From contig CANKJK010000006.1 in assembly GCA_947482665.1 (NCBI GenBank), positions 144,651 through 208,650 on the forward strand: DNA of 64,000 nt, in the 5' to 3' direction. Position 1 is the first letter of the stretch, and each line of letters opens with the position of its first letter. A model generated the notes under the pieces. That model was not told where the DNA came from. It did not search any database and saw only the letters and a list, made by a program, of their open reading frames with translations. This document shows, one piece after another, positions 17,418-62,798 of the stretch. A program made the translations under genes and the position numbers. The DNA comes from Acidobacteriota bacterium (GTDB lineage: Bacteria; Acidobacteriota; Vicinamibacteria; Vicinamibacterales; UBA2999).

Positions 17418-17771
17418 CTTTGCGTACGTAAAGTGCTTCACCACCCAGTCTTCAGTCTGACTGGCTTCAGACGCTGATCGCGCCCTGATCAGGGCAACTC
17501 CTTACGGGCCCGCCACGGCTGCGTCGATACGCTCGCTCGCACCGGTGGGCCGTGCGCGCCTGAACGAACGGAAGAAGAAGAAGACGCTCTCTCGACGTCT
17601 CGCCCCTCGCCGTCACCCCGCGCCATCCGGCGCCGCAGGCGTTCTGCCTGTCTCCACGGGTTCTCACGTCCTTCTCATCTCAGAGGTCCACGATTCACCA
17701 GAGACCCTGACGATGACTACACCCGATCTCGCGGCGTCCGGATGAGGTGTCACCGGCGCAATCGGTAGCAG

Positions 17772-17846
17772 TGTCCACAATTTTCAACCTCAGCCTTCTG
17801 CGGGTGACACATGGTGAATCGGCGATTTGTCGGGTTTCTGTGGACA
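17772..17846 (+). promoter_or_regulatory. inverted-repeat pair in the lower-GC leader of the cytochrome operon
   Basis: TGTCCACA (17772..17779) and its exact complement TGTGGACA (17839..17846). A second pair is GATTCACC (17692..17699) / GGTGAATC (17813..17820). Confidence 0.25.
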
Positions 17847-17923
17847 AAGGTTCACCTTTCATCGCGCAGTCGCTCATGGCCCCGGCCTTGCAGCCGAGGC
17901 GTGCACCTCTCGAGGGCGTCGTC

Positions 17924-19249: not shown

Positions 19250-19252
19250 CGG

Positions 19253-20152: not shown

Positions 20153-21993
20153 GTTCCGTGCCGCGCCCGCGCCACCGTCTGACGAGGCTGACGATCGCTG
20201 TGGTGGCACTGGCCTGCCTGCTGGGCCCGCGCGCCGCGTTCGCGCAACTCGGGGCGCTGGTGTCGCCAGGCCGGCTCCATCGGACGCATGCGGCCCTCGA
20301 GGGCCTCGACAAGTGCCTGCAGTGCCACTCGAAGGGGCGCCAGGTGTCTGTCGAGAAGTGCCTCTCCTGCCACAAGCCCGTGGCCGAACGCATCGCCCTG
20401 AAGAAGGGCATCCACCGTGCGGCAGCCGGGGACTGCGTGCGGTGCCACGTGGAGCATGCCGGAGCGGATAGTCAACTGCGGCCCTTCGATCAATCGAAGT
20501 TCGATCACGCCCGCGACACGGGCTGGGCCATCGACGGCCTCCACGCACCACTGGCGGCCAAGTGCGTGACCTGTCACAAGGAGCGTTCGTTCCTGACAGC
20601 GGGGACGACGTGCATCTCGTGCCATGCGGATCCGCACAAGCCATCCCTCGGCGCACAGTGCACGACGTGTCACAGCACGAGCGCGAAGTTCAAGGCCGCC
20701 ACCGAAACATTTGATCACGCGCGCGCGAGGTTCCGGCTCTCCGGGGCGCATGCCAAGGCGGCGTGCACCGCGTGCCACGTCAAGGGTCAATACAAGGGCG
20801 TCGCCTTCGAGACCTGCGCAAGCTGCCACAAGGACCCGCACCAGTCGCGGATGGGCACCGCCTGCCAGTCCTGCCATTCGGACACCTCGTGGCGGACGGG
20901 CAAGCTCGATCACGCCAGGACGGCCTTCCCCCTGCGCGGCAAGCACGCGGCCGTGGACTGCGTGAAGTGCCACGTCAAGCCGGCGGCGGTCGTAAAAGTG
21001 CGGGCAGACACGTGTGCGGTGTGCCACACGGACCCGCACCAGGGCGGATTCAAGCAGGACTGCGTGGCCTGCCACACGGAGACGACCTTCCAGAAGGGCA
21101 CGTTCGACCACGGCACCACGAAGTTCGCGCTGGCCGACAAGCATGGGGGCCTCACCTGCGTGACGTGCCACAAGGCCGTGCAGGGGAAGAACCTGGACTA
21201 CCGGGGCCTGAAGACCACGTGCGTCTCATGCCACGCGGACGTGCATCAGGGCGAGCTGGGCGCCACCTGTGAGAGTTGCCACTCGGCCAGGACGTGGGAC
21301 GTCAAGGCCTACACGCACCTCAAGCCGCGTAGCTTCTTTGATGGACGCCACCAGCCGTTGACCTGCACGCAGTGCCATCCCAGCACGCTGCAGCCCACGC
21401 GGACCTCCGCGGCGGTGCCCGCCTTGCGCGTCGGCTTCCCGGGAACGGCCACGGCCTGCGTGGCGTGCCACCAGGATGTGCATCTGGGCCAGCTCAAGAC
21501 GGACTGCGAGCGGTGCCACACGATCGACACACCGAAGTTTGCCGTCGCGGTGTTTGACCATGGCCGCACGGCGTTTCCGCTCACAGGGAAACACGGCCCC
21601 GTGAAGTGCGAGGGGTGCCACAAGACCGAGACCGGCGCCTTCCCGTCCGGCCATGGTTCGGCGCGGAAGTTCACTGGCGTCGGCACAGCCTGCGTGGCCT
21701 GCCATGTGGATCCCCACGCCGGGCAACTCGATCGCGCCTGCGAGACCTGCCACACCGTCGACCGCTTTACGCTGCCGGCCTACGTGCATCGGAACGCGAA
21801 GGGACTCAAGAGCTTCTTCTCGGGCCAACACGCTTCCGCGAAGTGCGCGGCGTGTCACAAGCCATCGCCCGCGGACCGCCCTGACAGGCGGGTGCTGGCC
21901 AGCTACGCCACCGTCACGACGTGCACGTCGTGCCACACCGACATTCACCGCGGCGCGCTCGGGCCCGCCTGCAGCAATTGTCACAAGCCATGA
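20149..21993 (+). CDS. multihaem cytochrome c, 24 CXXCH motifs (eight c7/c3-like triheme modules)
   Basis: GTG 20149 overlaps the upstream TGA. Signal peptide ..LLGPRAAFAQ. I counted 24 CXXCH by eye, with a recurring unit FDH..F.L.G.H...CxxCH...CxxCH.D(P/V)H....G..CxxCH. Confidence 0.9.
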   Translation: MSSVPRPRHRLTRLTIAVVALACLLGPRAAFAQLGALVSPGRLHRTHAALEGLDKCLQCHSKGRQVSVEKCLSCHKPVAERIALKKGIHRAAAGDCVRCHVEHAGADSQLRPFDQSKFDHARDTGWAIDGLHAPLAAKCVTCHKERSFLTAGTTCISCHADPHKPSLGAQCTTCHSTSAKFKAATETFDHARARFRLSGAHAKAACTACHVKGQYKGVAFETCASCHKDPHQSRMGTACQSCHSDTSWRTGKLDHARTAFPLRGKHAAVDCVKCHVKPAAVVKVRADTCAVCHTDPHQGGFKQDCVACHTETTFQKGTFDHGTTKFALADKHGGLTCVTCHKAVQGKNLDYRGLKTTCVSCHADVHQGELGATCESCHSARTWDVKAYTHLKPRSFFDGRHQPLTCTQCHPSTLQPTRTSAAVPALRVGFPGTATACVACHQDVHLGQLKTDCERCHTIDTPKFAVAVFDHGRTAFPLTGKHGPVKCEGCHKTETGAFPSGHGSARKFTGVGTACVACHVDPHAGQLDRACETCHTVDRFTLPAYVHRNAKGLKSFFSGQHASAKCAACHKPSPADRPDRRVLASYATVTTCTSCHTDIHRGALGPACSNCHKP

Positions 21994-24074
21994 CGAGGGC
22001 CACCATGACGCGCCTGCTCCGTCTTCTCACGTTGCTGTCCGGCGTCTGGCTGATGGCTGCGCCAGCGTCAGCGCAGTTCGACACGCCGAATCGCCAGTTC
22101 CACGACAAAACCACCTTCCGGCTCGAGGGTAAGCACCTCTCGACGCCCTGTGCGTCCTGCCACCTGAACGAGGTGTACAAGGGCACGCCGCGGCAGTGTG
22201 TCGACTGCCATTGGGTCCGCCGGCAGGATGACCGGTTCAAGCTCCAACTCGGCCGCCAGTGCGAGCAGTGCCACCGGCCCACGGCGTGGACAGGCGCGCG
22301 GTTCGACCATGCCGCCTTGACGTCCATGCCACTCGGCGGCGCGCACCGGCAACTGGCCTGTCAGACCTGCCACAAGAACGGCGACTTCCGCGGCGTACAG
22401 GGTGGCGGCTGCGTGAGTTGTCATCTGAAGGACTACCAGGCGGCCCGCACGCCGAACCACGTCACCGCTGCGTTCCCCACGACCTGCGAGGTCTGCCACC
22501 GGGTCAATGACACCTCATTCCACCAGGCTGGGTTCAACCACGCGGCGGCGTTTCCCCTGGTCGGCCCGCACGCCACGCAGACCTGCGCGGCCTGCCACGC
22601 CAACGGCGTCTACAAGGGCACGGCCCGCGACTGTGTGGGCTGCCACCGCACGGACTACAACCGGACCACGACCCCGAATCACGCCGCCGCTGGCTTCTCG
22701 ACCGACTGCCAGTCGTGCCACAAGGCGACAGAAAGCAGTTTCCGCGGGGCCGGGTTCAACCACACGGCCGTCTTCGCGCTCGTTGGCCAGCACGCGACGC
22801 AGACCTGCACGGCCTGTCACGTCAACAACGTCTACAAGGGCACGGCCCGCGACTGCGTGGGCTGCCACCGCACAGCCTACGACCGGACCACCACGCCCAA
22901 TCACGCCGCCGCCGGCTTCTCGACCGACTGTCAGTCGTGCCATAAGGCGACTGAGAGCAGCTTCCGCGGGGCCGGGTTCAACCACGCGGCCGTCTTCGCG
23001 CTGGTTGGCCAGCACGCCACGCAGACCTGCACGGCCTGCCACATCAACAACGTCTACAAGGGCACGGCGCGCGACTGCGTGGGCTGCCACCGCACGGCCT
23101 ACGACCGGACCACCACGCCCAATCACGCCGCGGCCGGCTTCTCCACCGACTGTCAGTCGTGCCATAAGGCGACGGACAGCAGCTTCCGCGGCGCGAGCTT
23201 CAATCACGCAGCCGTCTTCCCCTTGGTCGGCCAGCACGCCTCACAGACGTGCACCGCCTGCCACGTCAACAGCGTCTTCAAAGGCACGGCCCGCGACTGC
23301 GTGGGTTGTCACCGAGCCGCCTACAACAAGACGAGTGCGCCCAATCACGCCGCCGCTGGCTTCTCCACCGACTGTCAGTCGTGCCATAAAGCGACGGACA
23401 GCAGCTTCCGCGGCGCAAGCTTCAATCACGCGGCCGTCTTCCCCCTGGTTGGCCAGCACGCGACGCAAACCTGCGCGGCCTGCCACGCCAACGGCGTCTA
23501 CAAGGGCACCGCACGCGACTGCGTGGGTTGTCACCGCTCGGTCTACGACAAGACCAGCGCGCCCAATCACGCCGCCGCCGGCTTCTCCACCGACTGTCAG
23601 TCGTGCCACAAGGCGACGGACAACAGCTTCCGCGGCGCGAGCTTCAATCACGCGGCCGTCTTCCCCCTGGTTGGCCAGCACGCCTCGCAGACCTGCACCG
23701 CCTGTCACGCCAACGGCGTCTACAAGGGCACCGCCCGTGACTGCCTCGGCTGTCACCGCTCGAAGTACGACCGGACCAGCTCGCCGAATCACGCCGCCGC
23801 CGGCTTCTCCACCGACTGTCAGTCGTGCCACAGGGCCACCGACTCGTCGTGGGGACAGGGCACCTTCAATCACCGGTTCCCGATCGCATCCGGGCGCCAC
23901 AAGGCGCCGTGCTCGAGCTGCCATCAGAGCGGCACGGCCTACGCCAACTTCACCTGTCTGACGTGCCATGAGCATGCCCAGGCGTCGATGGATAGCAAGC
24001 ATCGAGGCCGCAATGGTTATCGCTATGAGTCACGCGCCTGTTACAGCTGCCACCCGACCGGGCGCGGCGACTAG
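21990..24074 (+). CDS. multihaem cytochrome c, 27 CXXCH motifs (nine triheme modules, six near-identical)
   Basis: ATG 21990 overlaps the upstream TGA (ATGA). Signal peptide ..WLMAAPASAQ. I counted 27 CXXCH by eye, with unit FNH..F.LVGQH...CxACH.N.VYKGTARDCVGCHR..Y..T..PNHAAAGFSTDCQSCH. Confidence 0.9.
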   Translation: MTRATMTRLLRLLTLLSGVWLMAAPASAQFDTPNRQFHDKTTFRLEGKHLSTPCASCHLNEVYKGTPRQCVDCHWVRRQDDRFKLQLGRQCEQCHRPTAWTGARFDHAALTSMPLGGAHRQLACQTCHKNGDFRGVQGGGCVSCHLKDYQAARTPNHVTAAFPTTCEVCHRVNDTSFHQAGFNHAAAFPLVGPHATQTCAACHANGVYKGTARDCVGCHRTDYNRTTTPNHAAAGFSTDCQSCHKATESSFRGAGFNHTAVFALVGQHATQTCTACHVNNVYKGTARDCVGCHRTAYDRTTTPNHAAAGFSTDCQSCHKATESSFRGAGFNHAAVFALVGQHATQTCTACHINNVYKGTARDCVGCHRTAYDRTTTPNHAAAGFSTDCQSCHKATDSSFRGASFNHAAVFPLVGQHASQTCTACHVNSVFKGTARDCVGCHRAAYNKTSAPNHAAAGFSTDCQSCHKATDSSFRGASFNHAAVFPLVGQHATQTCAACHANGVYKGTARDCVGCHRSVYDKTSAPNHAAAGFSTDCQSCHKATDNSFRGASFNHAAVFPLVGQHASQTCTACHANGVYKGTARDCLGCHRSKYDRTSSPNHAAAGFSTDCQSCHRATDSSWGQGTFNHRFPIASGRHKAPCSSCHQSGTAYANFTCLTCHEHAQASMDSKHRGRNGYRYESRACYSCHPTGRGD
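22533..23864 (+). repeat. six tandem 222-bp (74-codon) repeats inside the 27-haem cytochrome gene
   Basis: The TTCAACCAC / TTCAATCAC (FNH) codons that open each unit occur at 22533, 22755, 22977, 23199, 23421 and 23643, exactly 222 nt apart. Long identical nucleotide runs are shared between units. Confidence 0.9.
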
Positions 24075-36869: not shown

Positions 36870-38672
36870 CTACTTCCAGTACGTGATGTCGCGGCGCTCG
36901 AGCATCAGAACCTGGGCCCCCTTCATCGTGGTGCGATTCACCCAGTTGCCGCGGGCATCGAACCGATAGACCCACGTCGTCTCGCTCCCGTCCGGCTCGA
37001 CCCGCTTGATGATGTTGCCCAGGACGTCGAGCTCCACGACTGGTTCCAGCGTGCCGTCAACCACCAGGTGAGGCCATCGGGCCTCCTCGTAGTGCCAGCG
37101 CCGGATCACGGCCGGGGTGTCACCCGTCTGCGCGCGTTCCTCCACGAGACGGCCCCGCTGGTCGTAGGCCAGTTCGCGGATGCCCCCACCGTGCAGGTCG
37201 GTGGCCCTGGTCCGGCTGGCGTCGACAGGGACGAAGCGCCACGTGTAGAGCAGCGTGTCACCCTCAAAGCCCGGCTCGGTCTCGAGGCGTTTGTTGTCGT
37301 CGTAGAAGTACCGGACCGCCGTCCTGTCATCCGCGAAGGACTTGTCGACGAGCTGACCGATCTGGTCGAACCGCAACCGTGTCCACGCCTCGAGGAGCGC
37401 TTCACGGTCCGCGCGTCGCTCCGCTTCGGAGGGCCGCATCGTTCTGCCGTACTCCGCGACGAGACGGCCCCGGCGGGTCGTCAGACTCTCGGGCGAGTAC
37501 GTGGTGACGAGCTTGACCTGTCCCATCAATTCGTTTCGTTCACGATCATCGGCGGCACCCCTGGCCATTCTCGCCAGGGGCTGCACCGCTCCTCGGTTGG
37601 CGAGCAATGCGCGAACGAAGCGGACCGGAGCGGCGAAGTTGATCGCCTGCCCGGTGATCTGGATAGCCGTCACCACCCCGATGACCTCGCCCGATGGCGT
37701 CATGACGGGGCTCCCGCTGCTGCCGGGCGAAATTGGCGCACTGATCTGCAGCCGGTTCTGATTCGCGTCAGGCGCCGCGCTGACAATCCCCGTGGATAGG
37801 GTGCCACTCAGCCCGAGCGGTGCGCCATAGACCGAGACCGCGTCGCCGATCTGAGGCTCGGCCGTCGCCAGCGCCAGTTGTGCGGGCCCCGGCCGCACCG
37901 TCTGCAACGCGACCAGGTCATGCACCCGATCGACCGCGAGGACCCCGGCTATGGGAATGGTGACATTGCCCCCGACGGTCACGGTGGCCTGGATGCCGCC
38001 ATCAATCACATGGTGGTCGGTGATGAACACGTCCGGTTCGACAAAGAACCCGGACCCCTGCGCGAGATTCCCGCCCGCCTGGTCGAAGACACGCACCACC
38101 CCGCTGGCCGAGGACACCAGGCGGACCGTGTCCACGCGGGGGAATCGGAGGTACGCGCTCACCGCCCCCAGCACCACCACGACGGCCAGCACCGTGACCC
38201 AGAGACCTCGCCGGGCCAACACGCCGGCGACGCCCTCGCGCCACCGTCCCGCGGACGGCGATTCGTCCTCCTCCTCGAAGGGCACGCCACTCGAACGCGC
38301 GGACCACTCGCGCGCTTCGATGACCGCCTTCAGCACGGTGGCCTTGTCGAGCGGCTTGACGATGTACTCGATGATGCCGGGCTTGAAACTGGCGCTGGCG
38401 GGCACGTCGGCATCGGCGGTGGCCAGGATCATTGCCGCATGGGGGGACGCCAGTCGCACCTGGTCCGCCAGCCAGAGTCCGCTCCGGCCCGGCATGTGAA
38501 TGTCGATGATGACGACGGCTGGCCTGAACCCGTCCAGCACGGCCAGCGCCGACTCCGCATCGTGCGCCGTCTGGACCACATAGCCAGCCGGCACCAGCAT
38601 GCGCCTGAGGAGCTCGCGGATCCCCTCTTCGTCATCGACGACCAGTACGTGATTCGTGCTCAGTGCTGGCAT
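36870..38672 (-). CDS. response-regulator receiver - TM - trypsin-like (S1C/HtrA-type) serine protease - YD-repeat-like C-terminal domain
   Basis: REC domain (VLVVDDEEG..., phospho-acceptor in VVIIDIHMPG, VKPLD). One TM (LWVTVLAVVVVLGAVSAYL). Protease triad contexts ITDHHVI / VHDLVALQ / GSSGSPV. C-terminal YD-like hairpins (YFYDDNKRL, LAYDQRGRLVEE, VYRFDARGNWV). Confidence 0.75.
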   Translation of the reverse strand: MPALSTNHVLVVDDEEGIRELLRRMLVPAGYVVQTAHDAESALAVLDGFRPAVVIIDIHMPGRSGLWLADQVRLASPHAAMILATADADVPASASFKPGIIEYIVKPLDKATVLKAVIEAREWSARSSGVPFEEEDESPSAGRWREGVAGVLARRGLWVTVLAVVVVLGAVSAYLRFPRVDTVRLVSSASGVVRVFDQAGGNLAQGSGFFVEPDVFITDHHVIDGGIQATVTVGGNVTIPIAGVLAVDRVHDLVALQTVRPGPAQLALATAEPQIGDAVSVYGAPLGLSGTLSTGIVSAAPDANQNRLQISAPISPGSSGSPVMTPSGEVIGVVTAIQITGQAINFAAPVRFVRALLANRGAVQPLARMARGAADDRERNELMGQVKLVTTYSPESLTTRRGRLVAEYGRTMRPSEAERRADREALLEAWTRLRFDQIGQLVDKSFADDRTAVRYFYDDNKRLETEPGFEGDTLLYTWRFVPVDASRTRATDLHGGGIRELAYDQRGRLVEERAQTGDTPAVIRRWHYEEARWPHLVVDGTLEPVVELDVLGNIIKRVEPDGSETTWVYRFDARGNWVNRTTMKGAQVLMLERRDITYWK

Positions 38673-38675
38673 CCG

Positions 38676-38888
38676 TTACTCCCGCCCCGGCCTGCCCTGC
38701 TTCAATTCGGCCTGGAGCGCCGGCAGCATGGCCTGCATCTGCTGCAGGGCCTCGTGAATCCGCTGTGCATCCTCGCGCCTGACATCGCCTGGCTCAAGGT
38801 CCTCGATCAACAGCCGACAGAACCCCTCGGCAACCGCCACCTTGTTCTTGAACCTATGGATCAGGTCTGGCTCGAGCGTGTCCGCCAC
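38676..38888 (-). CDS. 70-aa stand-alone H-box (DHp-like) protein, putative histidine phosphotransfer or kinase-modulating protein
   Basis: GTG start with AAGGAG 6 nt upstream. DLIHRFKNKVAVAEGFCRLL resembles the HisKA_2/HWE H-box (E.HHRVKNNLQ). Two predicted helices and no ATPase domain. It ends 3 nt before the REC-protease start. Confidence 0.55.
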   Translation of the reverse strand: MADTLEPDLIHRFKNKVAVAEGFCRLLIEDLEPGDVRREDAQRIHEALQQMQAMLPALQAELKQGRPGRE

Positions 38889-39056
38889 CGGGAACTCCTT
38901 CTTCGAACGGCCTCACTCGACCGGTTCAGTTCATAATAGCTACCAACTCCGTCGGAGTGCCATGCCGATCTTCCTCTACTGGTTCTCCGTGCCGACCTGC
39001 TCCTCGCACGAAGGAGGACCGCACCGACTGGGGCCCACGCCTCCGAGGTTCCGCGC

Positions 39057-40577
39057 GTGACGGCCATCACTCTGCTACGCGATGCGACCCGCCTCCTGTT
39101 CGAGGAGCCGCTGGGGCCAGAGACGCTACAGCGGCTGGTCGACCACCTCGCGGCCGCCTGCCGGTTTCCCGCGCTCTGCTGTGCGCGTATCGCCATCGGG
39201 CCGATCACCGTCACCTCGGGTGCTGGTCCGCGCGCATCCGCCGTCATGGCCACTCAGTTCGCGGTGGCAGGCGCAACCGGCACCATTGAGGTCTGGTACA
39301 CCCAGGCCGATCTGCCAGTCGCGGACGAGGGCCCGTTTCTGACGGAGGAACGGCAGACGATTGAAGCGCTCGGGGAGTTGATCCGCCACGCATCCAGCAG
39401 CCGTGCCTCAATCGAGGACCGGCGCACGCTGGACGCGAGGTGGGACCAGGCTCAGAAGATGGAGACGCTCGGCACGCTCGCCGGCGGAATCGCCCACGAC
39501 TTCAACAACATCCTGGCGACGGTGATCGGCAATACCCGGCTCGCCCTCGAAGAGACCGGAGACACACCGGTCCGCGGGTATCTGCAGGAGATTGCGCGAG
39601 CCGCACAGCGCGCGGCGGATCTGGTCCAGCGGATCCTGGTGTTCAGCCGGGCCACCCACGGCACGCCGGTTGCCATCGGCATGGGCCAGGCCATCGAGGA
39701 CGCCCTTGGCCTGATCAAGGTGGGACTGACGCCCACCGTGGAGGTGACGACGGACATCGCCGCCGACCTCCCGCTGGCGCTGGTCGACCCGGCGCAGCTG
39801 CGCGAAGTCCTCATGAGCCTCTCCAGCAATGCGGCCGACGCCATGCGCGACACCGGGGGAGCGCTGCGGGTGACCGTTCAGGCTGTGACCGTCACCAGGA
39901 ACGACGCGCCCGCCCCGGAGCTCACGCCCGGCCGCTACCTGTGTCTCACCGTCGCCGATACCGGACGCGGCATCGCACCCGAGCACCTGGACCGCATCTT
40001 CGAGCCCTTCTTCTCGACGAAGGGTGCGCGGGGATCGGGACTTGGCCTGTCCACGGTGTACGGCATGGTGCACGACCATCACGGCGCGATTACGGTGGAG
40101 AGTCACGTCGGTGTGGGGACTGCCTTCCACATCTATCTGCCCACCGCGCCATCCGCGACGCCCTCGGCCTCGGCGACACCGACCGGCATCGTGCGCGGAC
40201 GCAATGAGCACATCCTCTACGTCGACGATGAGGAGCCGCTTGGCGTGCTGACCACGCGGGTGCTGACCCGCATGGGCTATCGGTGTACCAGCTTCAGCGA
40301 TCCACGCACGGCGTTGCGCGCCTTTACCGCGGACCCTATGGCGTTCGACGCCGTCGTGACGGATCTGGCGATGCCGGACCTTGACGGCGCCTCCCTGCTC
40401 AGGGCCATGCGCGACATCCGGCCCGACGTGCCGATGGCCGTGACCTCTGGCTTCGGAGACACCGCGGCCGAACAGGCCATGCACGGCCTGGTAGTGCCAC
40501 GCATTCCGAAACCGGCGTCGCCCGAGGCACTGAGCGCGGCGCTCTACGCGCTGCTCGCACCACGCCGCCAGGGGTAG
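39057..40577 (+). CDS. hybrid sensor histidine kinase (HisKA-HATPase_c-REC)
   Basis: H-box LAGGIAHDFNNILATV. N/G boxes (SNAADAM.., DTGRGI, GSGLGLS). C-terminal REC (ILYVDDEEP...VVTDLAMPDLDG). No HPt domain. Confidence 0.85.
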   Translation: MTAITLLRDATRLLFEEPLGPETLQRLVDHLAAACRFPALCCARIAIGPITVTSGAGPRASAVMATQFAVAGATGTIEVWYTQADLPVADEGPFLTEERQTIEALGELIRHASSSRASIEDRRTLDARWDQAQKMETLGTLAGGIAHDFNNILATVIGNTRLALEETGDTPVRGYLQEIARAAQRAADLVQRILVFSRATHGTPVAIGMGQAIEDALGLIKVGLTPTVEVTTDIAADLPLALVDPAQLREVLMSLSSNAADAMRDTGGALRVTVQAVTVTRNDAPAPELTPGRYLCLTVADTGRGIAPEHLDRIFEPFFSTKGARGSGLGLSTVYGMVHDHHGAITVESHVGVGTAFHIYLPTAPSATPSASATPTGIVRGRNEHILYVDDEEPLGVLTTRVLTRMGYRCTSFSDPRTALRAFTADPMAFDAVVTDLAMPDLDGASLLRAMRDIRPDVPMAVTSGFGDTAAEQAMHGLVVPRIPKPASPEALSAALYALLAPRRQG

Positions 40578-40581
40578 CCCC

Positions 40582-42879
40582 TTACGCCTGGTGCGCCGCG
40601 CCGGCCTCTCCTGCGGCCCCGGAGGACGAGTCAAGCGTCCGGCGGATCTGGGCCGTCAACGCATTCGGAACGAAGGGCTTGGCAATGAACGCGGCGCCCG
40701 ACAGCGCCTCTGGAGGCAGACGATCTCCCGTGTAGCCGGACATGTAGATCACTTTCAGCAAGGGCGTGCGGGCGGTGAGACGCGCCGCCAGTTCCACCCC
40801 GTTCATGCCAGGCAGGACGACATCGGTCAGCAGCAGATGGACCGCCCCCTGGCCACGCTCGAACATCTCCACGGCCTGCTCGCCATCCGATGCCGCCAGC
40901 ACGGTGTACCCAGCCTTCTTCAACATGCGCTCGGTGAGCGCCTGGAGCGCGACGTCGTCCTCCACGAGCAGGATGGTCTCGGTGCCGTGGCCGCTACGCA
41001 CCTGGTCTGGCGGAGCCGCTCCGGCGCTCCCCGCCTGTTGCGGCAGTTCGATCGTGAAGACGGCTCCAGCGCCCGGCTCGCTCGTCACAGAGACCGTGCC
41101 CCGGGACTGGCGCACGATTTCGGCCACGGTCGCCAGTCCCAGCCCCGTCCCCTTCCCATGTTCCTTGGTCGTAAAGAATGGCTCGAACAGATGCGGCAGG
41201 ACGTCGGGAGCGATGCCTGTTCCGGTATCCGAGACCGTCAGGCGGACCATCTGACGGTCGCCCCCCGATGCCGCAGGGTCCGACCACGCCGAGTTGACCA
41301 CCTGCGACGCGACCGTGAGCACACCGCCAGACGGCATGGCGTCGCGCGCATTGACCACGAGGTTCATCAATAACTGGTCAAAGTGCCCCGGATCAATCCG
41401 GACCGTGTCGGAGCCGCCACCGGATTCGACCACGAGATCGATGTCCTCGCCGATGAGACGCTGCAGCATCTTGGCCGACGCCCGGACGTGATCGCTGACG
41501 CTCAGGATGACTGGCACCGCTATCTGCTTCCGCGAGAAGGCCAGCAATTGCCGGGTGATGCCGGCTGCGCGATCGCCCGCGTCCTTGATCTGCTGCAGAT
41601 CCTCCCGTGCGGCATGGTCAGGTGGCAGGTCCTCGAGCGCCAGCGCGCTGGTACCGGCGATGATGGCCAGCAGGTTATTGAAGTCGTGCGCAACGCCCGC
41701 AACCAGACGACCGACCACCTCCATCTTCTGCGCCTGCAGGTACGCCGCGCTCCGCTGCTTCTCCTCGGTCAAATCACGCTTGATGGCGATGAAGTGCGTG
41801 ATGGCACCCTGGCCGTCACGGACGGGCGTGATGCTCTGCTGTTCTGGATAGTGGCTGCCGTCCTTCCGCCTGTTGGTCAGTTCGCCCGTCCACACAGCAC
41901 CGCCGGTAATCGTCGTCCACAGGTTCTGATAGAAGGCCTGGTCGTGCACACCAGACTTGACCAGTTCACGGGGATTGCGGCCGACGGCCTCGTACAACGT
42001 GTAGCCGGTCATTTCGGAGAATGCCGCGTTCACCCACACAATCGTGCCCGCGACATCCGTGATCGCGATGCCCTCGGCGGCCGCCTCCAGGGCGGCGCTC
42101 TGCAACTGAATCAGGGCCTCCCGCCGGTTGCGCTCGGAGATATCTCGGATGATGCCGGTGACATAGGTCCCCTCCTGCGCGGTCCACACGGACAGGGACA
42201 ACTCGATCTCGACTTCATGCCCGTCACGACAGAGGCCCACCAGCGCCAAGGGCTTCCCCTGATGTTTCAGGATTCCCTGGCTATGCATCTGCGCCAGGCC
42301 GGCTTGATGCGCCGCGCTGAATCGCTCTGGCATCAGTCTCGTGAGCGACTGACCAAGGATGTCGGCCTCGGCGTACCCGAAGATCCGCTCCGCGGCGGGG
42401 TTCCAGCCCACGAGGCGGCCTTCGCGGTCAACCGTCAGGATGGCGTCGTGGGCTGACTCGATGACCGACCGATACCGGGCCTCGCTGGCACGGAGGCGTT
42501 CGTCGGCCGCCGCCCGGTGCAGTGCGATCTCAATGGCGGAGCGGAGGGCACGCTCATCGAACGGCTTCGTGAGATAGCCGAGGGGTTCGGCCTGCTTGGC
42601 CCGCTCGACGATGTCATCCGTCGCGTAGGCCGTGACAAAGATGCTCGGGATCGTGAAGCGCTCCCGGATGATCGTCGCGGCCTCGATGCCGTCCATCGTG
42701 CCCGCGAGGTGGATGTCCATCAGCACGAGCGCGGGCTTGAACTGCCCGGCAAGCGTGATTGCCTCCTCGCCCGTGACGGCGACGCCGACGGGGCGATAGC
42801 CAAGATTCCGTAACTGCCACTCGAGATCAGTGGCCACGATGCCCTCGTCCTCTGCGACCAGAATGGAGATCGGATCCAT
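40582..42879 (-). CDS. hybrid sensor kinase REC-PAS-PAS-HisKA-HATPase_c-REC
   Basis: N-terminal REC (ILVAEDEGI..LVLMDIHLAG), two PAS modules, H-box VAGVAHDFNNLLAII, ATPase boxes, and a C-terminal REC (ILLVEDDVA..LLLTDVVLPGMNG). No HPt domain. Confidence 0.85.
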   Translation of the reverse strand: MDPISILVAEDEGIVATDLEWQLRNLGYRPVGVAVTGEEAITLAGQFKPALVLMDIHLAGTMDGIEAATIIRERFTIPSIFVTAYATDDIVERAKQAEPLGYLTKPFDERALRSAIEIALHRAAADERLRASEARYRSVIESAHDAILTVDREGRLVGWNPAAERIFGYAEADILGQSLTRLMPERFSAAHQAGLAQMHSQGILKHQGKPLALVGLCRDGHEVEIELSLSVWTAQEGTYVTGIIRDISERNRREALIQLQSAALEAAAEGIAITDVAGTIVWVNAAFSEMTGYTLYEAVGRNPRELVKSGVHDQAFYQNLWTTITGGAVWTGELTNRRKDGSHYPEQQSITPVRDGQGAITHFIAIKRDLTEEKQRSAAYLQAQKMEVVGRLVAGVAHDFNNLLAIIAGTSALALEDLPPDHAAREDLQQIKDAGDRAAGITRQLLAFSRKQIAVPVILSVSDHVRASAKMLQRLIGEDIDLVVESGGGSDTVRIDPGHFDQLLMNLVVNARDAMPSGGVLTVASQVVNSAWSDPAASGGDRQMVRLTVSDTGTGIAPDVLPHLFEPFFTTKEHGKGTGLGLATVAEIVRQSRGTVSVTSEPGAGAVFTIELPQQAGSAGAAPPDQVRSGHGTETILLVEDDVALQALTERMLKKAGYTVLAASDGEQAVEMFERGQGAVHLLLTDVVLPGMNGVELAARLTARTPLLKVIYMSGYTGDRLPPEALSGAAFIAKPFVPNALTAQIRRTLDSSSGAAGEAGAAHQA

Positions 42880-42884
42880 GTGCC

Positions 42885-45545
42885 CTAGCTCCTGACGGGC
42901 GCCGCGTCAGCGGCCACCGCGGGTTCAAACGACAGCGTGACGGAGGCGCCGGGCGCCTGTCCAAATGCGAGCGTGCCCCGCAACTGTCGCGCGAGGGATG
43001 CGACCAGCTTCAGGCCCAGGGTGTCGCCATGCAGCGGGTCACACCCTTGAGGAAACCCGACGCCCGTGTCCGCTACCGACAGATGCACGATCGTCCCTCC
43101 GGGGTCTGCCTTCAGGCTCACTGTGACCTGTCCCTGCCGGCCGTCAGGGAAGGCATGCTTGAGGGCGTTCGAGATCAACTCGTTGAGCAGCAATCCGCAC
43201 GGAACCGCCGTGTCCATATCGACAGACAGCGGGCACAGGTCGACGGCAACGGTCACGCCCGAGCGCGGCGCCACCGTACTACCCAACTGGCTCACCAGGC
43301 GTCCCAGGTATCCGCCAAGGTCGACCGTGGCGAACGTGCCCGTCCGATAGAGCATCTCGTGCAGCAGCGCCATCGACAGCAGGCGGGTCTGCATGTCGTC
43401 TGTCACCCGCGTCACCAGCGGACTCGCCGCCCGCGCACTCTCCAGCCGCAGCAGGCTGACGATGACCTGCAGGTTGTTCTTTACCCGGTGATGGACTTCC
43501 CCGAGCAGGGCATCCTTCTCGAGCAACGCGCGCTGGATGGCGGCCTCGGCCACACGCTGCTGCTCGGCCAGCACGAATCGGTCGAGGGCGAGGCCCAGAT
43601 TGGCGGCGAGCTCCGTGAGCAGCCGACGGTCATCAACGTCAAACGACGGGACCGCACTGGTATAGAACATCAGCGCACCAATCGCCCGCCCGCTCCGCCT
43701 GATGGGCAAGGCCACCGCCGCCGCCCACCCATATTTTCGGCCCCGCTCGTGCCACGGCCGCATGATGGCGTTGGTGGAGAAATCCTCGACCCAGACAGGT
43801 CGGCCTTCGCGGATGGCGGTGCCGGCCGGGCCCTGTCCGTGCGGATCGTCGACGCGCGCTGTAATGACAATGTCCTGAAGGTAGTCGGTCTCCCCTGCGG
43901 TGGCAGCGACCCGCACACGCCCAGTCTCGTCATCGGTCAGGCCAACCCAGGCCAGTCCCATGCCGCCGTAGGCGACGGCCGCCTTACACACTTGCGCGTA
44001 GAGCTCCTCTGGCCCGGAGCACCCGACCATGGCGTCGTTGCTGTGGCTGAGCGTGGCGTACAACTGGGCAAACCGGAGGCTCCGCAGCTCCGCGAGCTTC
44101 AAATCCGTGAGGTCGGTTGTCAGGCCAATGGCGCGGAGTGGATGCCCCTCAGGATCTCTCTCTGACAGGTGCATCCGCAGGTTGAGCCAGGTCCAGGGTT
44201 CGCTCCCGGCCCCCACTCGGAACAGGATGGGCTGTTCATCGCTGTCGCCCTTCCGCAGGGTGTCGAGCAGGCCCCTGACCACTGGCTGGTCAGCAGGATG
44301 CACGCGGTCCATCAGGGCCGCAAAGGGCTGGCGCTGGAACACGGGGTTCAAACCCAGCTGGGTGGCGAACTCAACACTCACGTCGGCATCGCCGGTCGCG
44401 ATGTCCAGTTCCCAGATCGCATGTCCGCCTCCACGCGTGACCATCTGGAGCTGCTCCAGCTGTTGTTGCACCACCACGGCGAGGCCCAGTTCCCGCTGCA
44501 GATATGCCGCGCGCTGACCACGCGCGACCACCCAGCGGATCAACAGGCCGACGAACAGAATCAGGACCACCGAAGAGGAAATCGCAATCCGCCACTGTGA
44601 AAGCGGCGCCCGGATCTCCGCGAGGTCCGACTTGGCCACGAGATACCACGGGCTCTCGGACACGGGGAGGAGCGAGCCGAGGACCCTCCCCCCCCGGTAG
44701 TCCCTTCCCTCCCTCGGACCGATCTCCCCCATCGCGGCCTGAACGGCGAGCACATCCTGACGAGCCATGGGTATCCGCATCCTCAACGCGGCTCCAGCAT
44801 CGAAGCGAGTCGGGTTGAGGAAGAGGACCTCAGCGCCCTCGCGCCTGACCAGGAGCGTTTCCGAACTTTCCGTCAACGTCGGCCAGGATTGGAGGTAATC
44901 GTTCAGGAAGAGCGTGGGATTGATGCTCATCACGACCGTGCCCAACACCACACCCGCGTCGTCGAGCAGCGGCGCCAGCACGGCCAGACGCACGGTCTGG
45001 TCGCGCTCATCTCGAAAGAAGTCCAGCATCCTGACTCGGCCAACTCTCTCGGTGTCCATCGACGCACGGACGGCGAGCGGCACGAGGACTCTCCCGGTAG
45101 GAACCGACACCCGCACCCGGCCGGCCTGGTCCACCAGATAGATCGAGTCGTATTGTCCGTAGGCCAGCCGGCTCCCCAGCCACCGCGCGACAGGGGCGGC
45201 CCCTGGATCGCTCGCGGCTGTTGCAGGGGTGTCTTGTAAGAGGCGCGCGGCCACGACGCTCCCTGGACTCGACTGCATCACCTGCCCATCGGCCAGACGT
45301 TCCCTCCGCCAACGGGCAAGCTCCGACGCCTTCAGAGCCGAGACGGTGGTCAGATCCCGTCGCGCCGCTGACTCTATCTGAGCGGCGACCCGGCGGTAGA
45401 ACGCATACGCGCCCGCCAGCACCGCAGCCACGATGAGCGCGGCAGCAATGGCCTGAGCGCGGCGCGCGGGCAGAGGCTTACGCAGGCCTCTACGCAGACC
45501 GGTTGTGTTCTGCCCCTGGGAGGAGTGATCGCGGTGCTGGGTCAT
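42885..45545 (-). CDS. sensor histidine kinase: Cache-like periplasmic domain-PAS-GAF-HisKA_2(HWE-type)-HATPase_c
   Basis: ATG 45545 with GGAGGG upstream. Two TMs flank a roughly 270-aa extracytoplasmic domain. H-box EVHHRVKNNLQVIVSLLRL. ATPase block LLNELISNALKHAF...VADTGVGFP. Confidence 0.8.
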   Translation of the reverse strand: MTQHRDHSSQGQNTTGLRRGLRKPLPARRAQAIAAALIVAAVLAGAYAFYRRVAAQIESAARRDLTTVSALKASELARWRRERLADGQVMQSSPGSVVAARLLQDTPATAASDPGAAPVARWLGSRLAYGQYDSIYLVDQAGRVRVSVPTGRVLVPLAVRASMDTERVGRVRMLDFFRDERDQTVRLAVLAPLLDDAGVVLGTVVMSINPTLFLNDYLQSWPTLTESSETLLVRREGAEVLFLNPTRFDAGAALRMRIPMARQDVLAVQAAMGEIGPREGRDYRGGRVLGSLLPVSESPWYLVAKSDLAEIRAPLSQWRIAISSSVVLILFVGLLIRWVVARGQRAAYLQRELGLAVVVQQQLEQLQMVTRGGGHAIWELDIATGDADVSVEFATQLGLNPVFQRQPFAALMDRVHPADQPVVRGLLDTLRKGDSDEQPILFRVGAGSEPWTWLNLRMHLSERDPEGHPLRAIGLTTDLTDLKLAELRSLRFAQLYATLSHSNDAMVGCSGPEELYAQVCKAAVAYGGMGLAWVGLTDDETGRVRVAATAGETDYLQDIVITARVDDPHGQGPAGTAIREGRPVWVEDFSTNAIMRPWHERGRKYGWAAAVALPIRRSGRAIGALMFYTSAVPSFDVDDRRLLTELAANLGLALDRFVLAEQQRVAEAAIQRALLEKDALLGEVHHRVKNNLQVIVSLLRLESARAASPLVTRVTDDMQTRLLSMALLHEMLYRTGTFATVDLGGYLGRLVSQLGSTVAPRSGVTVAVDLCPLSVDMDTAVPCGLLLNELISNALKHAFPDGRQGQVTVSLKADPGGTIVHLSVADTGVGFPQGCDPLHGDTLGLKLVASLARQLRGTLAFGQAPGASVTLSFEPAVAADAAPVRS

Positions 45546-45632
45546 TGGAGGACCCTCCGCCGCTAGTATGCGCCCCTCACAGCCAGCCGCAGAGGCTCTC
45601 TCGGATGGCCCCGTCGCCAACCGCCAGCGGAT

Positions 45633-59496: not shown

Positions 59497-59985
59497 ATGG
59501 CCCGGATGCGTGCGCTCGTCGTGGTCTTCCTCGTGGCCCTGTTGGGCACCGCGCTTCCCGCCCAGGCTCAGCAGGCCGAGGATGCCGACATCAGCGGCGT
59601 CTACCGGTGCGACGGCGTGAATCCGCAGGGGAAGCCCTATCGCGGCATGGTCGAGATCGTGAAGATGAACGATGCGTTCCAGTTGCGCTGGACCTTCCCG
59701 CAGAGCGACGACGCCGCGCTGGGCATCGGCATCGTCAGCCACGGCGTACTGGCGGTGAGCTACTACGGCGGCGACACGGCGGGTGTGGTCGTCTACAAGA
59801 TCAACGCGAACAAACCCATGGTCGGCACGTGGACGGTGGTGGGTTCCGAGGGTGGCGTGTTCCAGGAGACGCTGACCCGCCTGCCCGGCCACGGGGGGCC
59901 GAGCGACAGCGGTCAGCCGCCGTCCGAGCGGGCACCTCGGCGGCCGTCGACGCTGGGTGACCCCTCCACCGTCATCCAAGGTTGA
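59497..59985 (+). CDS. hypothetical secreted protein
   Basis: AAGGAG ribosome-binding site and signal peptide ..ALPAQAQ. A beta-rich core is followed by a Pro/Ser-rich tail. Confidence 0.55.
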   Translation: MARMRALVVVFLVALLGTALPAQAQQAEDADISGVYRCDGVNPQGKPYRGMVEIVKMNDAFQLRWTFPQSDDAALGIGIVSHGVLAVSYYGGDTAGVVVYKINANKPMVGTWTVVGSEGGVFQETLTRLPGHGGPSDSGQPPSERAPRRPSTLGDPSTVIQG

Positions 59986-60737
59986 CACGCACGCTCGTCG
60001 CGTTCGCGGCTGCCTTCGCGGCCGGCGCGATCAACTCCGTGGCAGGTGGGGGCACGCTCCTCACCTTCCCCACGCTCGTCTGGCTGGGCCTGCCCTCTAT
60101 CGTGGCCAATGCCACGAGTACCGTCTCCATCTGGCCAGGCTCCTTCGGCGCGATGTGGGGCTTCCGCCGTGAACTGCGCCAGGCGGATGCGCCGATCCTG
60201 GCGTTTGTGATCCCCAGCCTCGCCGGCGGCCTCCTGGGCGCGATGCTGCTGCGGCGGACACCTACACCGGTCTTTGACCACCTCGTCCCGTTCCTGATCC
60301 TCTTCGCCACGCTGCTCTTCATGGCGCAGGATCCGCTGCAGCGCCTCATCGGCCACAGCCCCGACCGGCATCGCGATACCCGCTGGCTCATCGGCGCGAT
60401 GGTCTTTCAGTTTGCCATCGGCCTTTACGGGGGCTACTTCGGCGCGGGCATCGGCATCCTGATGCTGGCCGGCCTCGGCATCCTCGGCATGCGCGACATC
60501 CACCAGATGAACGGCGTGAAGAACCTGCTCGCGCTCTCCATCAACGGCATCGCCGCGTGCTACTTCATGTCCACCGGCATGGTCCGCTGGACCGAAGTGG
60601 CCGTGATGGCGACGGGCGCCATCGCTGGGGGCATCGGCGGCGCGGGCCTCGCGCGCCGCGTGGGGCGGAAGACCGTGCGAGCGACGGTCATCGCCATTGG
60701 CCTTGGCATGGCCCTCTCGCTGGCGCTGCGCCAGTAG
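59982..60737 (+). CDS. TauE/SafE (TSUP) family anion exporter
   Basis: Seven to eight TMs with AGAINSVAGGGTLLTFP and a repeated half (GGYFGAGIGILML). The TTG start overlaps the upstream TGA. Confidence 0.8.
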   Translation: MTRTLVAFAAAFAAGAINSVAGGGTLLTFPTLVWLGLPSIVANATSTVSIWPGSFGAMWGFRRELRQADAPILAFVIPSLAGGLLGAMLLRRTPTPVFDHLVPFLILFATLLFMAQDPLQRLIGHSPDRHRDTRWLIGAMVFQFAIGLYGGYFGAGIGILMLAGLGILGMRDIHQMNGVKNLLALSINGIAACYFMSTGMVRWTEVAVMATGAIAGGIGGAGLARRVGRKTVRATVIAIGLGMALSLALRQ

Positions 60738-60765: not shown

Positions 60766-62019
60766 ATGCTTCACGATCAACTCAAAGACGCCACCGCAGA
60801 CCAGCACGCGCGGCTTGATGCCCTGCCGTTCTTTCAAGCGCTGCAGGCAGGCACGCTGCCCGCGCCGGCGATTGTCACCCTGCTGCGCGGCCTGGCGATC
60901 GTGCATGCGGTCCTCGAGCGGGCCGTCACCCAGAGCGCTGATGCCCGGCTCGCCGCAGTGGCTTCAGCCACATCCCCGAAGTTGCCACTGATCGTCGCGG
61001 ACCTGGAGCGCCTCGATGTCGCACAGACACCGAGCATCACACCGGCCATTCACGCGGCCCTCGACTGCGGGGCCGCGATCCTCAGGCGTGCCGAGAATCC
61101 CCTGAGCCTGCTCGGCACGCTGTATGTGCTGGAGGGTTCGCAACGCGGCGGTGACGTCCTTCGAAAGGCCTACGCACAGTGTCTCGCCGTGCCGGCCGAC
61201 CAGCTCTCGTACTGGGGTTGCTACCGGCAGGACACTCAGGCGCGCTGGGCGCAGTTCACCCTCAGCCTGAATGCCCTGACCTGCGACGAAGGCGACGTCG
61301 CTGCGGTGACGGACGCCGCCGTCCGCGCCTTCGAATGGTTCACGCGTATTTGTTCCGCGCTCTATCCGTACACCGAGCAGCAACTGAAGCAGCACGTCAC
61401 GGCGGTCAATTTCGAAGCCGGCGACCACGCGATGCCCCAGGCCCCAGGAGAGATGGAGCTGGCCTTGCGCGCCGGCCGGGACGCCTGGGATCGGAATCCC
61501 TACCTGGAGATGCGCTTCGGCGACCGCGGGCGGCGATTCACCAGCAGTGACAGCTGCTGGCTGGTCACCCTGATCCATCTGCCAGAGACGCAGGGGGTTC
61601 GCAGTCTGGAATGGCTGCGGTCGGTACTTGCCAGCCGGGGCATTTCGACGGTCATCCTTGGAATCTATCTCCAGTGCATCCTGCGCCTCTGGATGGACGA
61701 GGGCTTTGGCGCGACAGCCTCGGGGCCCGGCTTGGCCAGGTTTCTCGCTGATCGGGAGGCAGAGCGGGCATCGCTCGGCTATGCGGTGCCGGTCGTCGAG
61801 CGGTATGAGCGGAGGCTGGCACGGTGCTCGGGACTCACCGTTCCATCGGCGGCGACACTCATCGCGTCCGCCTGGGTTGATGAGCGCGCCGGGATCGTCG
61901 GCGCCCTCTCGTCAACCCTCGACTGGTTCACGGACCAGAACCGTTTCACACCGGAATGGACGGACATCGTCCACAAACTGCTGGCGGAACTGGACACACT
62001 GACGGGGGCCGTATGCTGA
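60766..62019 (+). CDS. haem oxygenase (BphO/HO-1 fold) fused to an uncharacterised C-terminal domain of about 200 aa
   Basis: The N-terminal LKDATADQHARLD contains the proximal-His context. LYVLEGSQRGGDVLRKA matches the HO distal-helix Gly motif. Residues from about 210 to 417 match no motif I recognise. Confidence 0.65.
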   Translation: MLHDQLKDATADQHARLDALPFFQALQAGTLPAPAIVTLLRGLAIVHAVLERAVTQSADARLAAVASATSPKLPLIVADLERLDVAQTPSITPAIHAALDCGAAILRRAENPLSLLGTLYVLEGSQRGGDVLRKAYAQCLAVPADQLSYWGCYRQDTQARWAQFTLSLNALTCDEGDVAAVTDAAVRAFEWFTRICSALYPYTEQQLKQHVTAVNFEAGDHAMPQAPGEMELALRAGRDAWDRNPYLEMRFGDRGRRFTSSDSCWLVTLIHLPETQGVRSLEWLRSVLASRGISTVILGIYLQCILRLWMDEGFGATASGPGLARFLADREAERASLGYAVPVVERYERRLARCSGLTVPSAATLIASAWVDERAGIVGALSSTLDWFTDQNRFTPEWTDIVHKLLAELDTLTGAVC

Positions 62020-62798
62020 GGTGGTGCGGATACTGCCAGACGTTTCTGGGCGAGGCGCCGCCCTTCGACAAACTGGTGATCACGCACGGCGTGTGCGAGA
62101 CGTGCGCCGAGCTGGCGCTAGACTTCACGCCTCAGAACATCGAGCACGCACATACCCTGCAGGACATCCTCGCGGAACTGTCCCTGGCCGGCAGCCGCGC
62201 AGATATGCAGGCCGCCAAGGCGGCTATTCGCACCGCGACCGCCGCGCACATGCAGCCGGTCGACATGTTGCTGGGCCTGGTCGCACCGCTGCTCTTCGAG
62301 ATTGGAGAGGAGTGGCGGAAGGGCCGCATCACGGTGGCCACCGAGCATCGGTTCACAGAGTTCTTCGAGCAGGTCTTCGCACTACTGGAGCCCCGCGCCC
62401 TCGCGCTCGTGGGTACCCCCAGTGGCGCAACTGGGCAGCCTGATGCCCTGGTGATGAATGCCTGGGGCAATCGGCACACGCTGGCCGCTCGTGTGCTCTC
62501 GCTCTGGCTCGGGGCCAGGGGCCTTCGGACGCAGCTGCTGGAACCGCCGCCACCGCCGGAGGAAGTCGCCGCCATCATCATTCGCCTCCAGCCACGGATG
62601 GTCTTTGTCTCCGTGGCGCTCTCCGAGCACATAGAGAGCGTGCGAGCGCTCGCCGACATGGTCTCGTCGATACCCGAATCACACCGTCCACGATTCGTCG
62701 TCGGCGGAAGCGCCGTGAAGATGGGCCTGGTCCCGGACACGCCGGGCCTGGAACTGGTGCCGGACATTCACGACTTGAACCTCGAGGCGGCTGTCTAG
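62013..62798 (+). CDS. Zn-ribbon + CarH-like B12-binding module (four-helix bundle with Wx9EH, plus Rossmann B12-binding domain)
   Basis: N-terminal CGYC..x19..CETC. W101-x9-E111-H112 (WRKGRITVATEH; 62313..62348). GNRH155TLAA (62475..62477) aligns with CarH GERHEIGA. No HTH. The start overlaps the HO stop (ATGCTGA). Confidence 0.65.
   Translation: MLRWCGYCQTFLGEAPPFDKLVITHGVCETCAELALDFTPQNIEHAHTLQDILAELSLAGSRADMQAAKAAIRTATAAHMQPVDMLLGLVAPLLFEIGEEWRKGRITVATEHRFTEFFEQVFALLEPRALALVGTPSGATGQPDALVMNAWGNRHTLAARVLSLWLGARGLRTQLLEPPPPPEEVAAIIIRLQPRMVFVSVALSEHIESVRALADMVSSIPESHRPRFVVGGSAVKMGLVPDTPGLELVPDIHDLNLEAAV

Follow-up and report, generated by a model that had tools for sequence, protein, structure and literature searches.

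A 64,000-nucleotide stretch of DNA from an Acidobacteriota bacterium (contig CANKJK010000006.1; hereafter the window) carries two overlapping genes, the first encoding a 417-residue haem oxygenase fused to a photoglobin-like unit and the second a 261-residue protein in which a small four-cysteine (Cys4) finger precedes a CarH-type cobalamin-binding module. We propose, with a probability of roughly 60%, that this second, ‘finger-B12’ protein is the cobalamin half of a two-protein photoreceptor of the photocobilin type, one that makes its own biliverdin. Photocobilins bind adenosylcobalamin (AdoCbl) together with biliverdin and respond to red light (PMC10979010), and a class of receptor combining B12 and biliverdin was foreshadowed in two further studies (PMC8717448, PMC10151467).

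A CarH-type module behind a Cys4 finger

The finger-B12 protein contains two Pfam domains, B12-binding_2 followed by B12-binding (PF02607, residues 55-126, 38.8 bits against a cut-off of 23; PF02310, residues 147-235, 38.6 bits against a cut-off of 32.1). Among PDB sequences, its top phmmer match is CarH/LitR of Thermus thermophilus (5c8a, E 1.1e-10), and in this alignment W101, E111-H112 and G152-N-R-H155 fall on the W-x9-E-H and G-E-R-H motifs of CarH (W101 at 62313..62315; H112 at 62346..62348). When an AlphaFold2 (AF2) model built from 23 family sequences (predicted local distance difference test score, pLDDT, 87.8) was submitted to Foldseek, the best 45 matches were all CarH cobalamin-binding domains (TtCarH), the best of them at E 3e-10. 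The same residues persist across 76 family members, whose tblastn best-segment identity falls to ~23-25%: E111 and H155 are each present in 74, H112 in 72 and W101 in 66, most of the other ten carrying a different aromatic residue in place of this Trp. A preliminary description of this DNA had pointed to a W101-x9-E111-H112 motif of the CarH type and to a Rossmann B12 domain with His155 as candidate axial ligand, and the Pfam matches, alignment, coordinates and conservation bear out both. The Pfam domains, the alignment to CarH, the Foldseek matches and conservation within the family together support the prediction that the protein carries a CarH-type AdoCbl light-sensing module.

The module resembles that of CarH/LitR from T. 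thermophilus and Myxococcus xanthus (PDB 5C8A-5C8F) in its four-helix bundle, Rossmann domain, W-x9-E-H motif and candidate lower axial His. It is CarH-like, yet the protein is not a CarH: a Pfam scan finds no MerR-type helix-turn-helix, the Cys4 finger standing in its place, and the NCBIfam CarH equivalog model scores 63.5 bits against a cut-off of 400, aligning only over model positions 81-254, the cobalamin-binding part. Nor does the window gene lie beside carotenoid genes, and it encodes N-x-H where CarH has E-x-H. In terms of the E/D-x-H-x-x-G motif, His155 aligns, the acidic residue is replaced by an Asn (N153) that is itself shared by 72 of the 76 family members, and the Gly is replaced by Ala in the window protein. 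The SignatureFinder signature of light-responsive B12 proteins comprises GxxW, EH, GxxH and GxxxP elements (PMC11796333). Three of the four are present; of the fourth, GxxxP, the alignment recovers just the Pro (P181), while E177 stands where the Gly is expected, at a position that varies across the family.

Two other identities for the B12 domain are suggested by names and neighbours. Several homologues bear the JGI label ‘methanogenic corrinoid protein MtbC1’ and have the Pfam domain pair of such proteins, but a methyltransferase corrinoid protein is barely credible here: we found no methyltransferase gene near the finger-B12 gene at any locus examined, the MtaC-type sequence 2i2x is matched at only E 0.9, and the best matches are to CarH, with the W-x9-E-H light signature in place. 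The preliminary description had raised the possibility that the domain binds haem, as do the SCHIC domains of the AerR/PpaA family, and had linked this to the haem oxygenase upstream, whose substrate such a domain would sense. The oxygenase gene does adjoin, and AerR is among the PDB matches (7te2), but far more weakly than CarH, whose match is better by seven orders of magnitude (E 1e-10 versus 3e-4). Moreover, the protein retains all of CarH's contacts to cobalamin and the adenosyl group, the candidate lower axial His and all residues of the adenosyl pocket are conserved, and the adjacency of the oxygenase is accounted for by its fusion to a photoglobin-like, predicted biliverdin-binding domain of its own. 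Haem binding by the B12-like domain thus fares poorly, and we regard it as very improbable.

The N-terminal finger is the best-conserved part of the finger-B12 protein (M-L-R-W-C-x-Y-C-Q-x-F-x-G-E...T-H-G-x-C-x-x-C). As the preliminary description had noted, CGYC-x19-CETC replaces the MerR helix-turn-helix; C28 and C31 occur in all 76 family members and H25 in 74, whereas the first CxxC (C5, C8) was part of the search pattern, so that its own 76/76 conservation is not evidence. AF2 places strands at residues 2-5, 11-14 and 23-26 and a helix at 29-32 (pLDDT ~88), with C5xxC8 following the first strand and C28xxC31 sited after the last strand, where the helix begins. This model predicts a zinc-ribbon or treble-clef layout, with two CxxC knuckles on a small beta-rich scaffold.

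Nine fingers scanned alone against Pfam gave sub-threshold matches only, the best to FYVE (E 0.004, in one member), with PknG_rubred at E 0.08-0.14 in three of the nine, and others to zinc-ribbon models and, through W-C-x-x-C, to thioredoxin-like families. Matches among PDB sequences were no better, and we found no PDB relative. Because all of these matches are sub-threshold, the finger belongs to no Pfam or PDB family, and we rejected its assignment as a rubredoxin or known zinc ribbon. A thioredoxin-like WCxxC site was also rejected, as the likeness is sub-threshold and confined to the motif. The W-C-x-x-C sequence, the weak rubredoxin- and thioredoxin-like matches, the conserved His25 beside the second CxxC and the non-phototrophic, heterotrophic life of the hosts could nevertheless be read as signs that the pair is not a light sensor at all but serves tetrapyrrole handling or redox or metal sensing, for example in a scheme that joins cobalamin to the breakdown of haem and uses the Cys4 site for redox chemistry or to hold iron. 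We consider this distinctly improbable. The W-x9-E-H motif, which serves the AdoCbl light response in CarH, is kept across phyla, CarH itself is found in non-phototrophs, every one of the finger matches is sub-threshold, and 35 residues are too few for a thioredoxin fold.

What the finger may do is suggested by its charge, which averages -1.5 over residues 1-35 (n = 76 family members). This acidity speaks for a role in protein contact, or within the molecule itself, rather than for binding to nucleic acid; of the two outputs offered in the preliminary description, it fits protein contact. Since the finger is the sole extra domain and its conservation exceeds that of the sensor, it is the most natural candidate for a partner contact. 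AerR and PpaA, which likewise have a B12-type domain without a DNA-binding domain, act through protein-protein contact, although they are much more distant relatives than CarH (E 3e-4 versus 1e-10) and no CrtJ/PpsR-type partner gene lies near the finger-B12 gene.

A haem oxygenase fused to a photoglobin-like unit

The N-terminal half of the upstream protein matches Heme_oxygenase (PF01126) over residues 3-196 (52.7 bits against a cut-off of 23). In a profile of 54 homologues, H14 falls on His20 of Corynebacterium HmuO and G124, G128 and G129 on G135, G139 and G140 of its distal helix, with S125 at the position of Asp136. The corresponding half of the AF2 model superposes on haem oxygenases with a template-modelling (TM) score of ~0.77, normalised to the target HmuO, and a Foldseek search with the whole model returned haem oxygenases only. 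By its sequence signature, the protein carries a canonical haem oxygenase, which is predicted to convert haem to biliverdin.

Across the 54 homologues, the C-terminal 210 residues are conserved even better than the oxygenase part. Invariant features include N-x-E-A-G-x-H-x-x-P, Y-L-x-x-R-x-x-x-R-G-x-R-F-x-x-S-D-x-C-W-L, W283, R291-G292, D372 and W398, and the unit has no match in Pfam, NCBIfam or PDB sequences. A route to its identity was offered by another finger-B12 locus (L040), where a 138-residue open reading frame (ORF) overlaps the start of the finger-B12 gene and finds, as its best sensible PDB match, the globin of the photocobilin AbPcob (8j2y 223-330, E 0.17). This AbPcob fragment in turn matches residues 234-317 of a second photocobilin, SasPcob (E 1e-4). 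Because a homologue search with the L040 ORF recovered only itself, we built a photoglobin reference alignment (A4) from the L040 ORF, a similar ORF of locus L058 and the aligned parts of 8J2Y (AbPcob 223-330) and 8J2W (SasPcob 234-317).

Compared with A4 by hhalign, a profile of the C-terminal unit gave a probability of 93.2% (E 2.9e-7, 87 columns) and the full-length 54-sequence profile one of 88% (E 3e-6, window residues 231-318), while control comparisons with the B12-protein profile gave 5% and 0.1%. A hidden Markov model of the four A4 sequences, run over 9388 stop-to-stop ORFs from 85 loci, recovered the seeds and the oxygenase fusions only. The alignment sets T259-S-S-D262 against T-L-D-D of SasPcob, S-L-R-D of the L040 ORF and C-x-R-D of phycobiliproteins. 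D262 shares a column with the SasPcob Asp at chain position 264, and W283 with the Trp at chain position 290; through an inferred offset of +6, these equate with the biliverdin-binding Asp270 and with Trp296. AbPcob carries a His in the D262 column, as the photocobilin paper reports for the Asp270 column (PMC10979010). Both D262 and W283 are invariant among the 54 homologues, and AF2 places five high-confidence helices over residues 227-336. With fair confidence, then, we read the upstream protein as a fusion of a haem oxygenase with a photoglobin-like domain that is predicted to bind biliverdin.

This assignment accords with the known distribution of photoglobins. An architecture combining Heme_oxygenase with a photoglobin has been listed, and stand-alone photoglobins nearly always adjoin genes for B12-binding_2 plus B12-binding proteins (PMC8717448); BBAG-2 globins, of the same lineage, bind biliverdin (PMC10151467). 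The window unit matches the photoglobin profile, has T-x-x-D in place of C-x-[QR]-D and adjoins a B12-binding gene. It differs from photoglobin/BBAG-2 proteins in its family-invariant D-S-C-W and R-G-I-P (BBAG-2 has R-G-M-C), in the N-x-E-A-G-x-H-x-x-P-Q motif that precedes the globin and in a C-terminal extension. Six positions of the motif are invariant among the 54 homologues and it is kept in a stand-alone form (P0147), yet residues 211-220 of the model, within this region, have pLDDT <50; perhaps the motif becomes ordered upon complex formation alone, or perhaps His221 serves as a ligand. The extension, of ~100 residues, forms four helices with invariant A369, D372 and W398 and matches neither the photoglobin profile nor Pfam or PDB sequences, and it has no similarity to the B12 protein.

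A HMMER search of 1.84 billion cluster representatives with the C-terminal-unit profile found 779 matches at E <= 1e-3, 353 of them at E <= 1e-30. Most are oxygenase fusions of ~420 residues and some are stand-alone forms of 210-240 residues; a Pfam scan of seven members of atypical length detected a B12 domain in none. One representative, P0144 (632 residues), has a haem oxygenase followed by two tandem photoglobin-like units. At two finger-B12 loci, from a Chlorobium metagenome-assembled genome (MAG; L065, 6812..7264) and an Elusimicrobia MAG (L075, 5909..6370), homologous and probably helical ORFs of ~150 residues overlap the 3' end of the finger-B12 gene. We rejected these as globins (hhalign probability 0.2%, no PDB match).

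Gene coupling, family and locus

The start of the finger-B12 gene overlaps the end of the oxygenase gene in the sequence ATGCTGA, and because the same letters encode the M-L start of the B12 protein, the oxygenase fusion must end in Cys (TGC TGA, 62014..62019). An in-frame ATG at 61956 was rejected as the start because every homologue begins M-L/I-x-W-C. Among 22 loci from genome and metagenome sets that have both genes on the same strand, 16 have a 7-nt overlap of the form (A/G)TG(C/T)TGA and four a 4-nt ATGA, the remaining two looking like frameshifted assemblies; the 7-nt overlap persists at 40-50% protein identity (loci L001-L088). Four oxygenase fusions were also picked without regard to a B12 gene, and downstream of each lies an overlapping, finger-bearing gene 255-270 codons long. 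The identities of the two proteins to their window counterparts also co-vary (r = 0.82, n = 22). We conclude from these arrangements that the upstream gene and the finger-B12 gene are translationally coupled.

A word-indexed search of 5.8 billion proteins gave 22 full-length relatives of the finger-B12 protein, and a pattern scan with the N-terminal motif, covering one genome per species, gave 77 loci; the family extends beyond 77 species, because the pattern misses members that start with GTG. Its hosts include Acidobacteriota, Alpha- and Gammaproteobacteria (among them the cultured Bradyrhizobium frederickii and B. tropiciagri), Granulicella, Myxococcota, Bdellovibrionota, Elusimicrobia, Spirochaetes, Chlorobium, Gemmatimonadaceae and Chloroflexia. 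At least three studies have metagenomes, from lakes and freshwater, that contain the window DNA itself, which points to a lit habitat; no RNA run contains the region.

Upstream of the oxygenase gene and on the same strand (59497..60737) are genes for a TauE/SafE-family permease and a small secreted protein, which end 28 nt before it and make a four-gene operon possible; this context is not conserved at other loci. A convergent DUF2911 gene lies downstream. Near the operon we found no cobalamin riboswitch, promoter or terminator of note, and the Myxococcota loci checked have no bilin reductase (pre-PcyA) cluster. The features of the two genes are collected in Table 1.

Table 1 Features of the oxygenase-globin and finger-B12 genes, in window coordinates
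Feature	Position	Strand	Basis or remark
Partner gene: 417-residue haem oxygenase fused to photoglobin-like unit	60766..62019	+	Pfam; at least 131 homologues; AF2 pLDDT 90.6; hhalign
Haem oxygenase domain, residues 1-200	60766..61365	+	PF01126; HmuO alignment; Foldseek
Proximal His14	60805..60807	+	Aligned to HmuO His20
Distal-helix motif G124-S-Q-R-G128-G129	61135..61152	+	HmuO alignment
N-x-E-A-G-x-H-x-x-P-Q motif (N-F-E-A-G-D-H-A-M-P-Q), residues 215-225	61408..61440	+	Between oxygenase and globin
Photoglobin-like (predicted biliverdin-binding globin) core, residues 227-318	61444..61719	+	hhalign; D262 and W283
T259-S-S-D262	61540..61551	+	
C264	61555..61557	+	
W283	61612..61614	+	
C-terminal helical extension of globin unit, residues 319-417	61720..62016	+	AF2 helices 321-412
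ATGCTGA stop/start overlap of the two genes	62013..62019	+	Sequence
Gene for 261-residue Cys4-finger and CarH-type cobalamin-binding protein	62013..62798 (with stop codon)	+	ORF; Pfam PF02607 and PF02310; full-length homologues
Cys4 finger, residues 1-35	62013..62117	+	Conservation; AF2
C5xxC8 (C5-G-Y-C8)	62025..62036	+	
H25 of finger	62085..62087	+	
C28xxC31 (C28-E-T-C31)	62094..62105	+	19 residues after C8
Four-helix bundle (B12-binding_2), residues 40-133	62130..62411	+	Pfam; CarH alignment; AF2 helices 40-61, 65-77, 82-102, 108-133
G98-x-x-W101-x9-E111-H112 motif	62304..62348	+	CarH alignment; in four-helix bundle
Rossmann-type B12-binding domain, residues 145-248	62445..62756	+	Pfam; CarH alignment
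G152-N153-R-H155	62466..62477	+	His155, candidate lower axial Co ligand, aligned to His of CarH G-E-R-H

Elsewhere, the window encodes a 2038-residue protein made of 49 ALTTAQ repeats (PF20080; 2254..8370, reverse strand) and a GAF-ANTAR regulator (16465..17211, forward strand) beside a tRNA gene (17342..17414). A forward-strand run at 17747..24074 comprises a FAD/NAD/2Fe-2S reductase, a single unassigned 299-residue ORF and two large multihaem c-type cytochromes with Cytochrome_C7 and MtrC/MtrF-like domains. A signalling cluster at 36870..45620 holds a protein that joins a response-regulator receiver to both a trypsin-like peptidase and an RHS repeat, together with a hybrid histidine kinase, a response regulator-PAS-PAS kinase and a Cache-GAF HWE/HisKA_2 kinase.

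A proposed two-protein light receptor and its implications

The oxygenase-globin partner does not accompany the finger-B12 protein everywhere. An oxygenase fusion or a photoglobin lies within 6 kb of the finger-B12 gene at only about 24 of the 77 genome loci and is lacking from this range at about two thirds, with the complete genomes of B. frederickii and Granulicella sp. L46 as examples of a finger-B12 gene that has no globin neighbour; neighbours elsewhere are often PAS, histidine-kinase, response-regulator or GGDEF-EAL proteins, and clustering of flanking ORFs identified no conserved neighbour besides the oxygenase fusion and such generic signalling genes. This distribution would suit a stand-alone B12 photosensor, similar to CarH or AerR, that uses its finger to act on a signalling protein or a transcription factor and merely shares an operon with a separate bilin protein. 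AerR, whose structure was matched at E 3e-4, is an earlier example of a B12 protein that lacks a DNA-binding domain (PMC9144470). Wherever the oxygenase fusion occurs, however, a finger-B12 gene follows with a stop/start overlap, and the identities of the two proteins co-vary. Photoglobins, moreover, pack on B12 modules, to which they are nearly always joined by fusion or by adjacency (PMC8717448, PMC10979010). We therefore consider the stand-alone sensor unlikely.

Several observations weigh against the two-protein photocobilin-type receptor that we prefer. Given the many loci that lack a globin neighbour, the finger-B12 protein can work without an adjacent globin. The globin assignment comes from profile-profile comparison over ~88 residues with a small reference alignment, and the profile of the 417-residue family has no direct match to 8J2W or 8J2Y among PDB sequences, returning haem oxygenases only even at E <= 10. 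In the B12 module, the family has Asn for the acidic residue of E/D-x-H, and GxxxP lacks its Gly. The window shows no evident output gene. Finally, we infer cofactor binding, complex formation and the response to light alike.

If the preferred reading is right, the pair would share with the photocobilins SasPcob and AbDPcob (PDB 8J2W/8J2X/8J2Y; PMC10979010) a B12 module of the CarH type, containing W-x-EH and a lower axial His, a photoglobin-type domain with the key Asp and Trp and, we expect, two chromophores. In contrast to photocobilins, the window pair divides globin and B12 module between two translationally coupled polypeptides. Its globin is joined to a haem oxygenase and has the ~100-residue extension, and its B12 protein has an N-terminal Cys4 finger and no diguanylate cyclase (DGC) or other enzymatic output domain. 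The pair is thus photocobilin-like yet not a photocobilin, as that class is defined by a fused polypeptide.

We envisage that the oxygenase would turn haem into biliverdin IX-alpha, which the fused globin would retain. The second protein could then receive the globin on its B12 module, in the manner of the fused globin in SasPcob and AbPcob, where biliverdin is held at the corrin edge of a module of the CarH type (PMC10979010). In such a complex, the Co-C bond would be cleaved either by light up to green, absorbed by AdoCbl, or by red to far-red light, absorbed by biliverdin, upon which His112 would shift onto the cobalt and the assembly would change its oligomeric state. This change could be relayed by protein-protein contacts, most likely involving the acidic Cys4 finger, to a signalling protein encoded elsewhere or to the fused oxygenase itself. 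A bolder version, which we offer tentatively and with considerable doubt, is a self-charging two-chromophore receptor in which the finger-B12 protein gates its oxygenase-globin partner, placing haem breakdown and biliverdin release under light control, and in which the Cys4 finger is a new adaptor or output domain that links the CarH-type sensor to kinases or cyclic-di-GMP enzymes where the globin partner is absent.

Earlier bioinformatic work had already noted that globins associate with haem oxygenase and with B12-binding proteins (PMC8717448). In the papers searched, we found no mention of a Cys4 finger (zinc or CxxC) on the B12 partner, of an N-x-H variant of the axial-ligand motif, or of the invariant N-x-E-A-G-x-H-x-x-P-Q and the ~100-residue globin extension. 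B12-based photoreception is a young field, in which the structure of CarH dates from 2015 and the description of photocobilins from 2024, and to our knowledge fused photocobilins are the only ones studied experimentally. The locus described here would be a natural two-protein version, with the bilin-binding globin joined to the enzyme that makes the bilin, and our reading corrects database names, for instance ‘methanogenic corrinoid protein MtbC1’ or simply ‘heme oxygenase’. Non-phototrophic members of the Acidobacteriota, Proteobacteria, Myxococcota, Bdellovibrionota and other phyla widely carry the module. Should the two proteins form a complex, it would illustrate how the sensing of green and of red light can be built up from separate components, provide a compact optogenetic pair needing only haem and B12, and offer a way to learn what the finger connects to.

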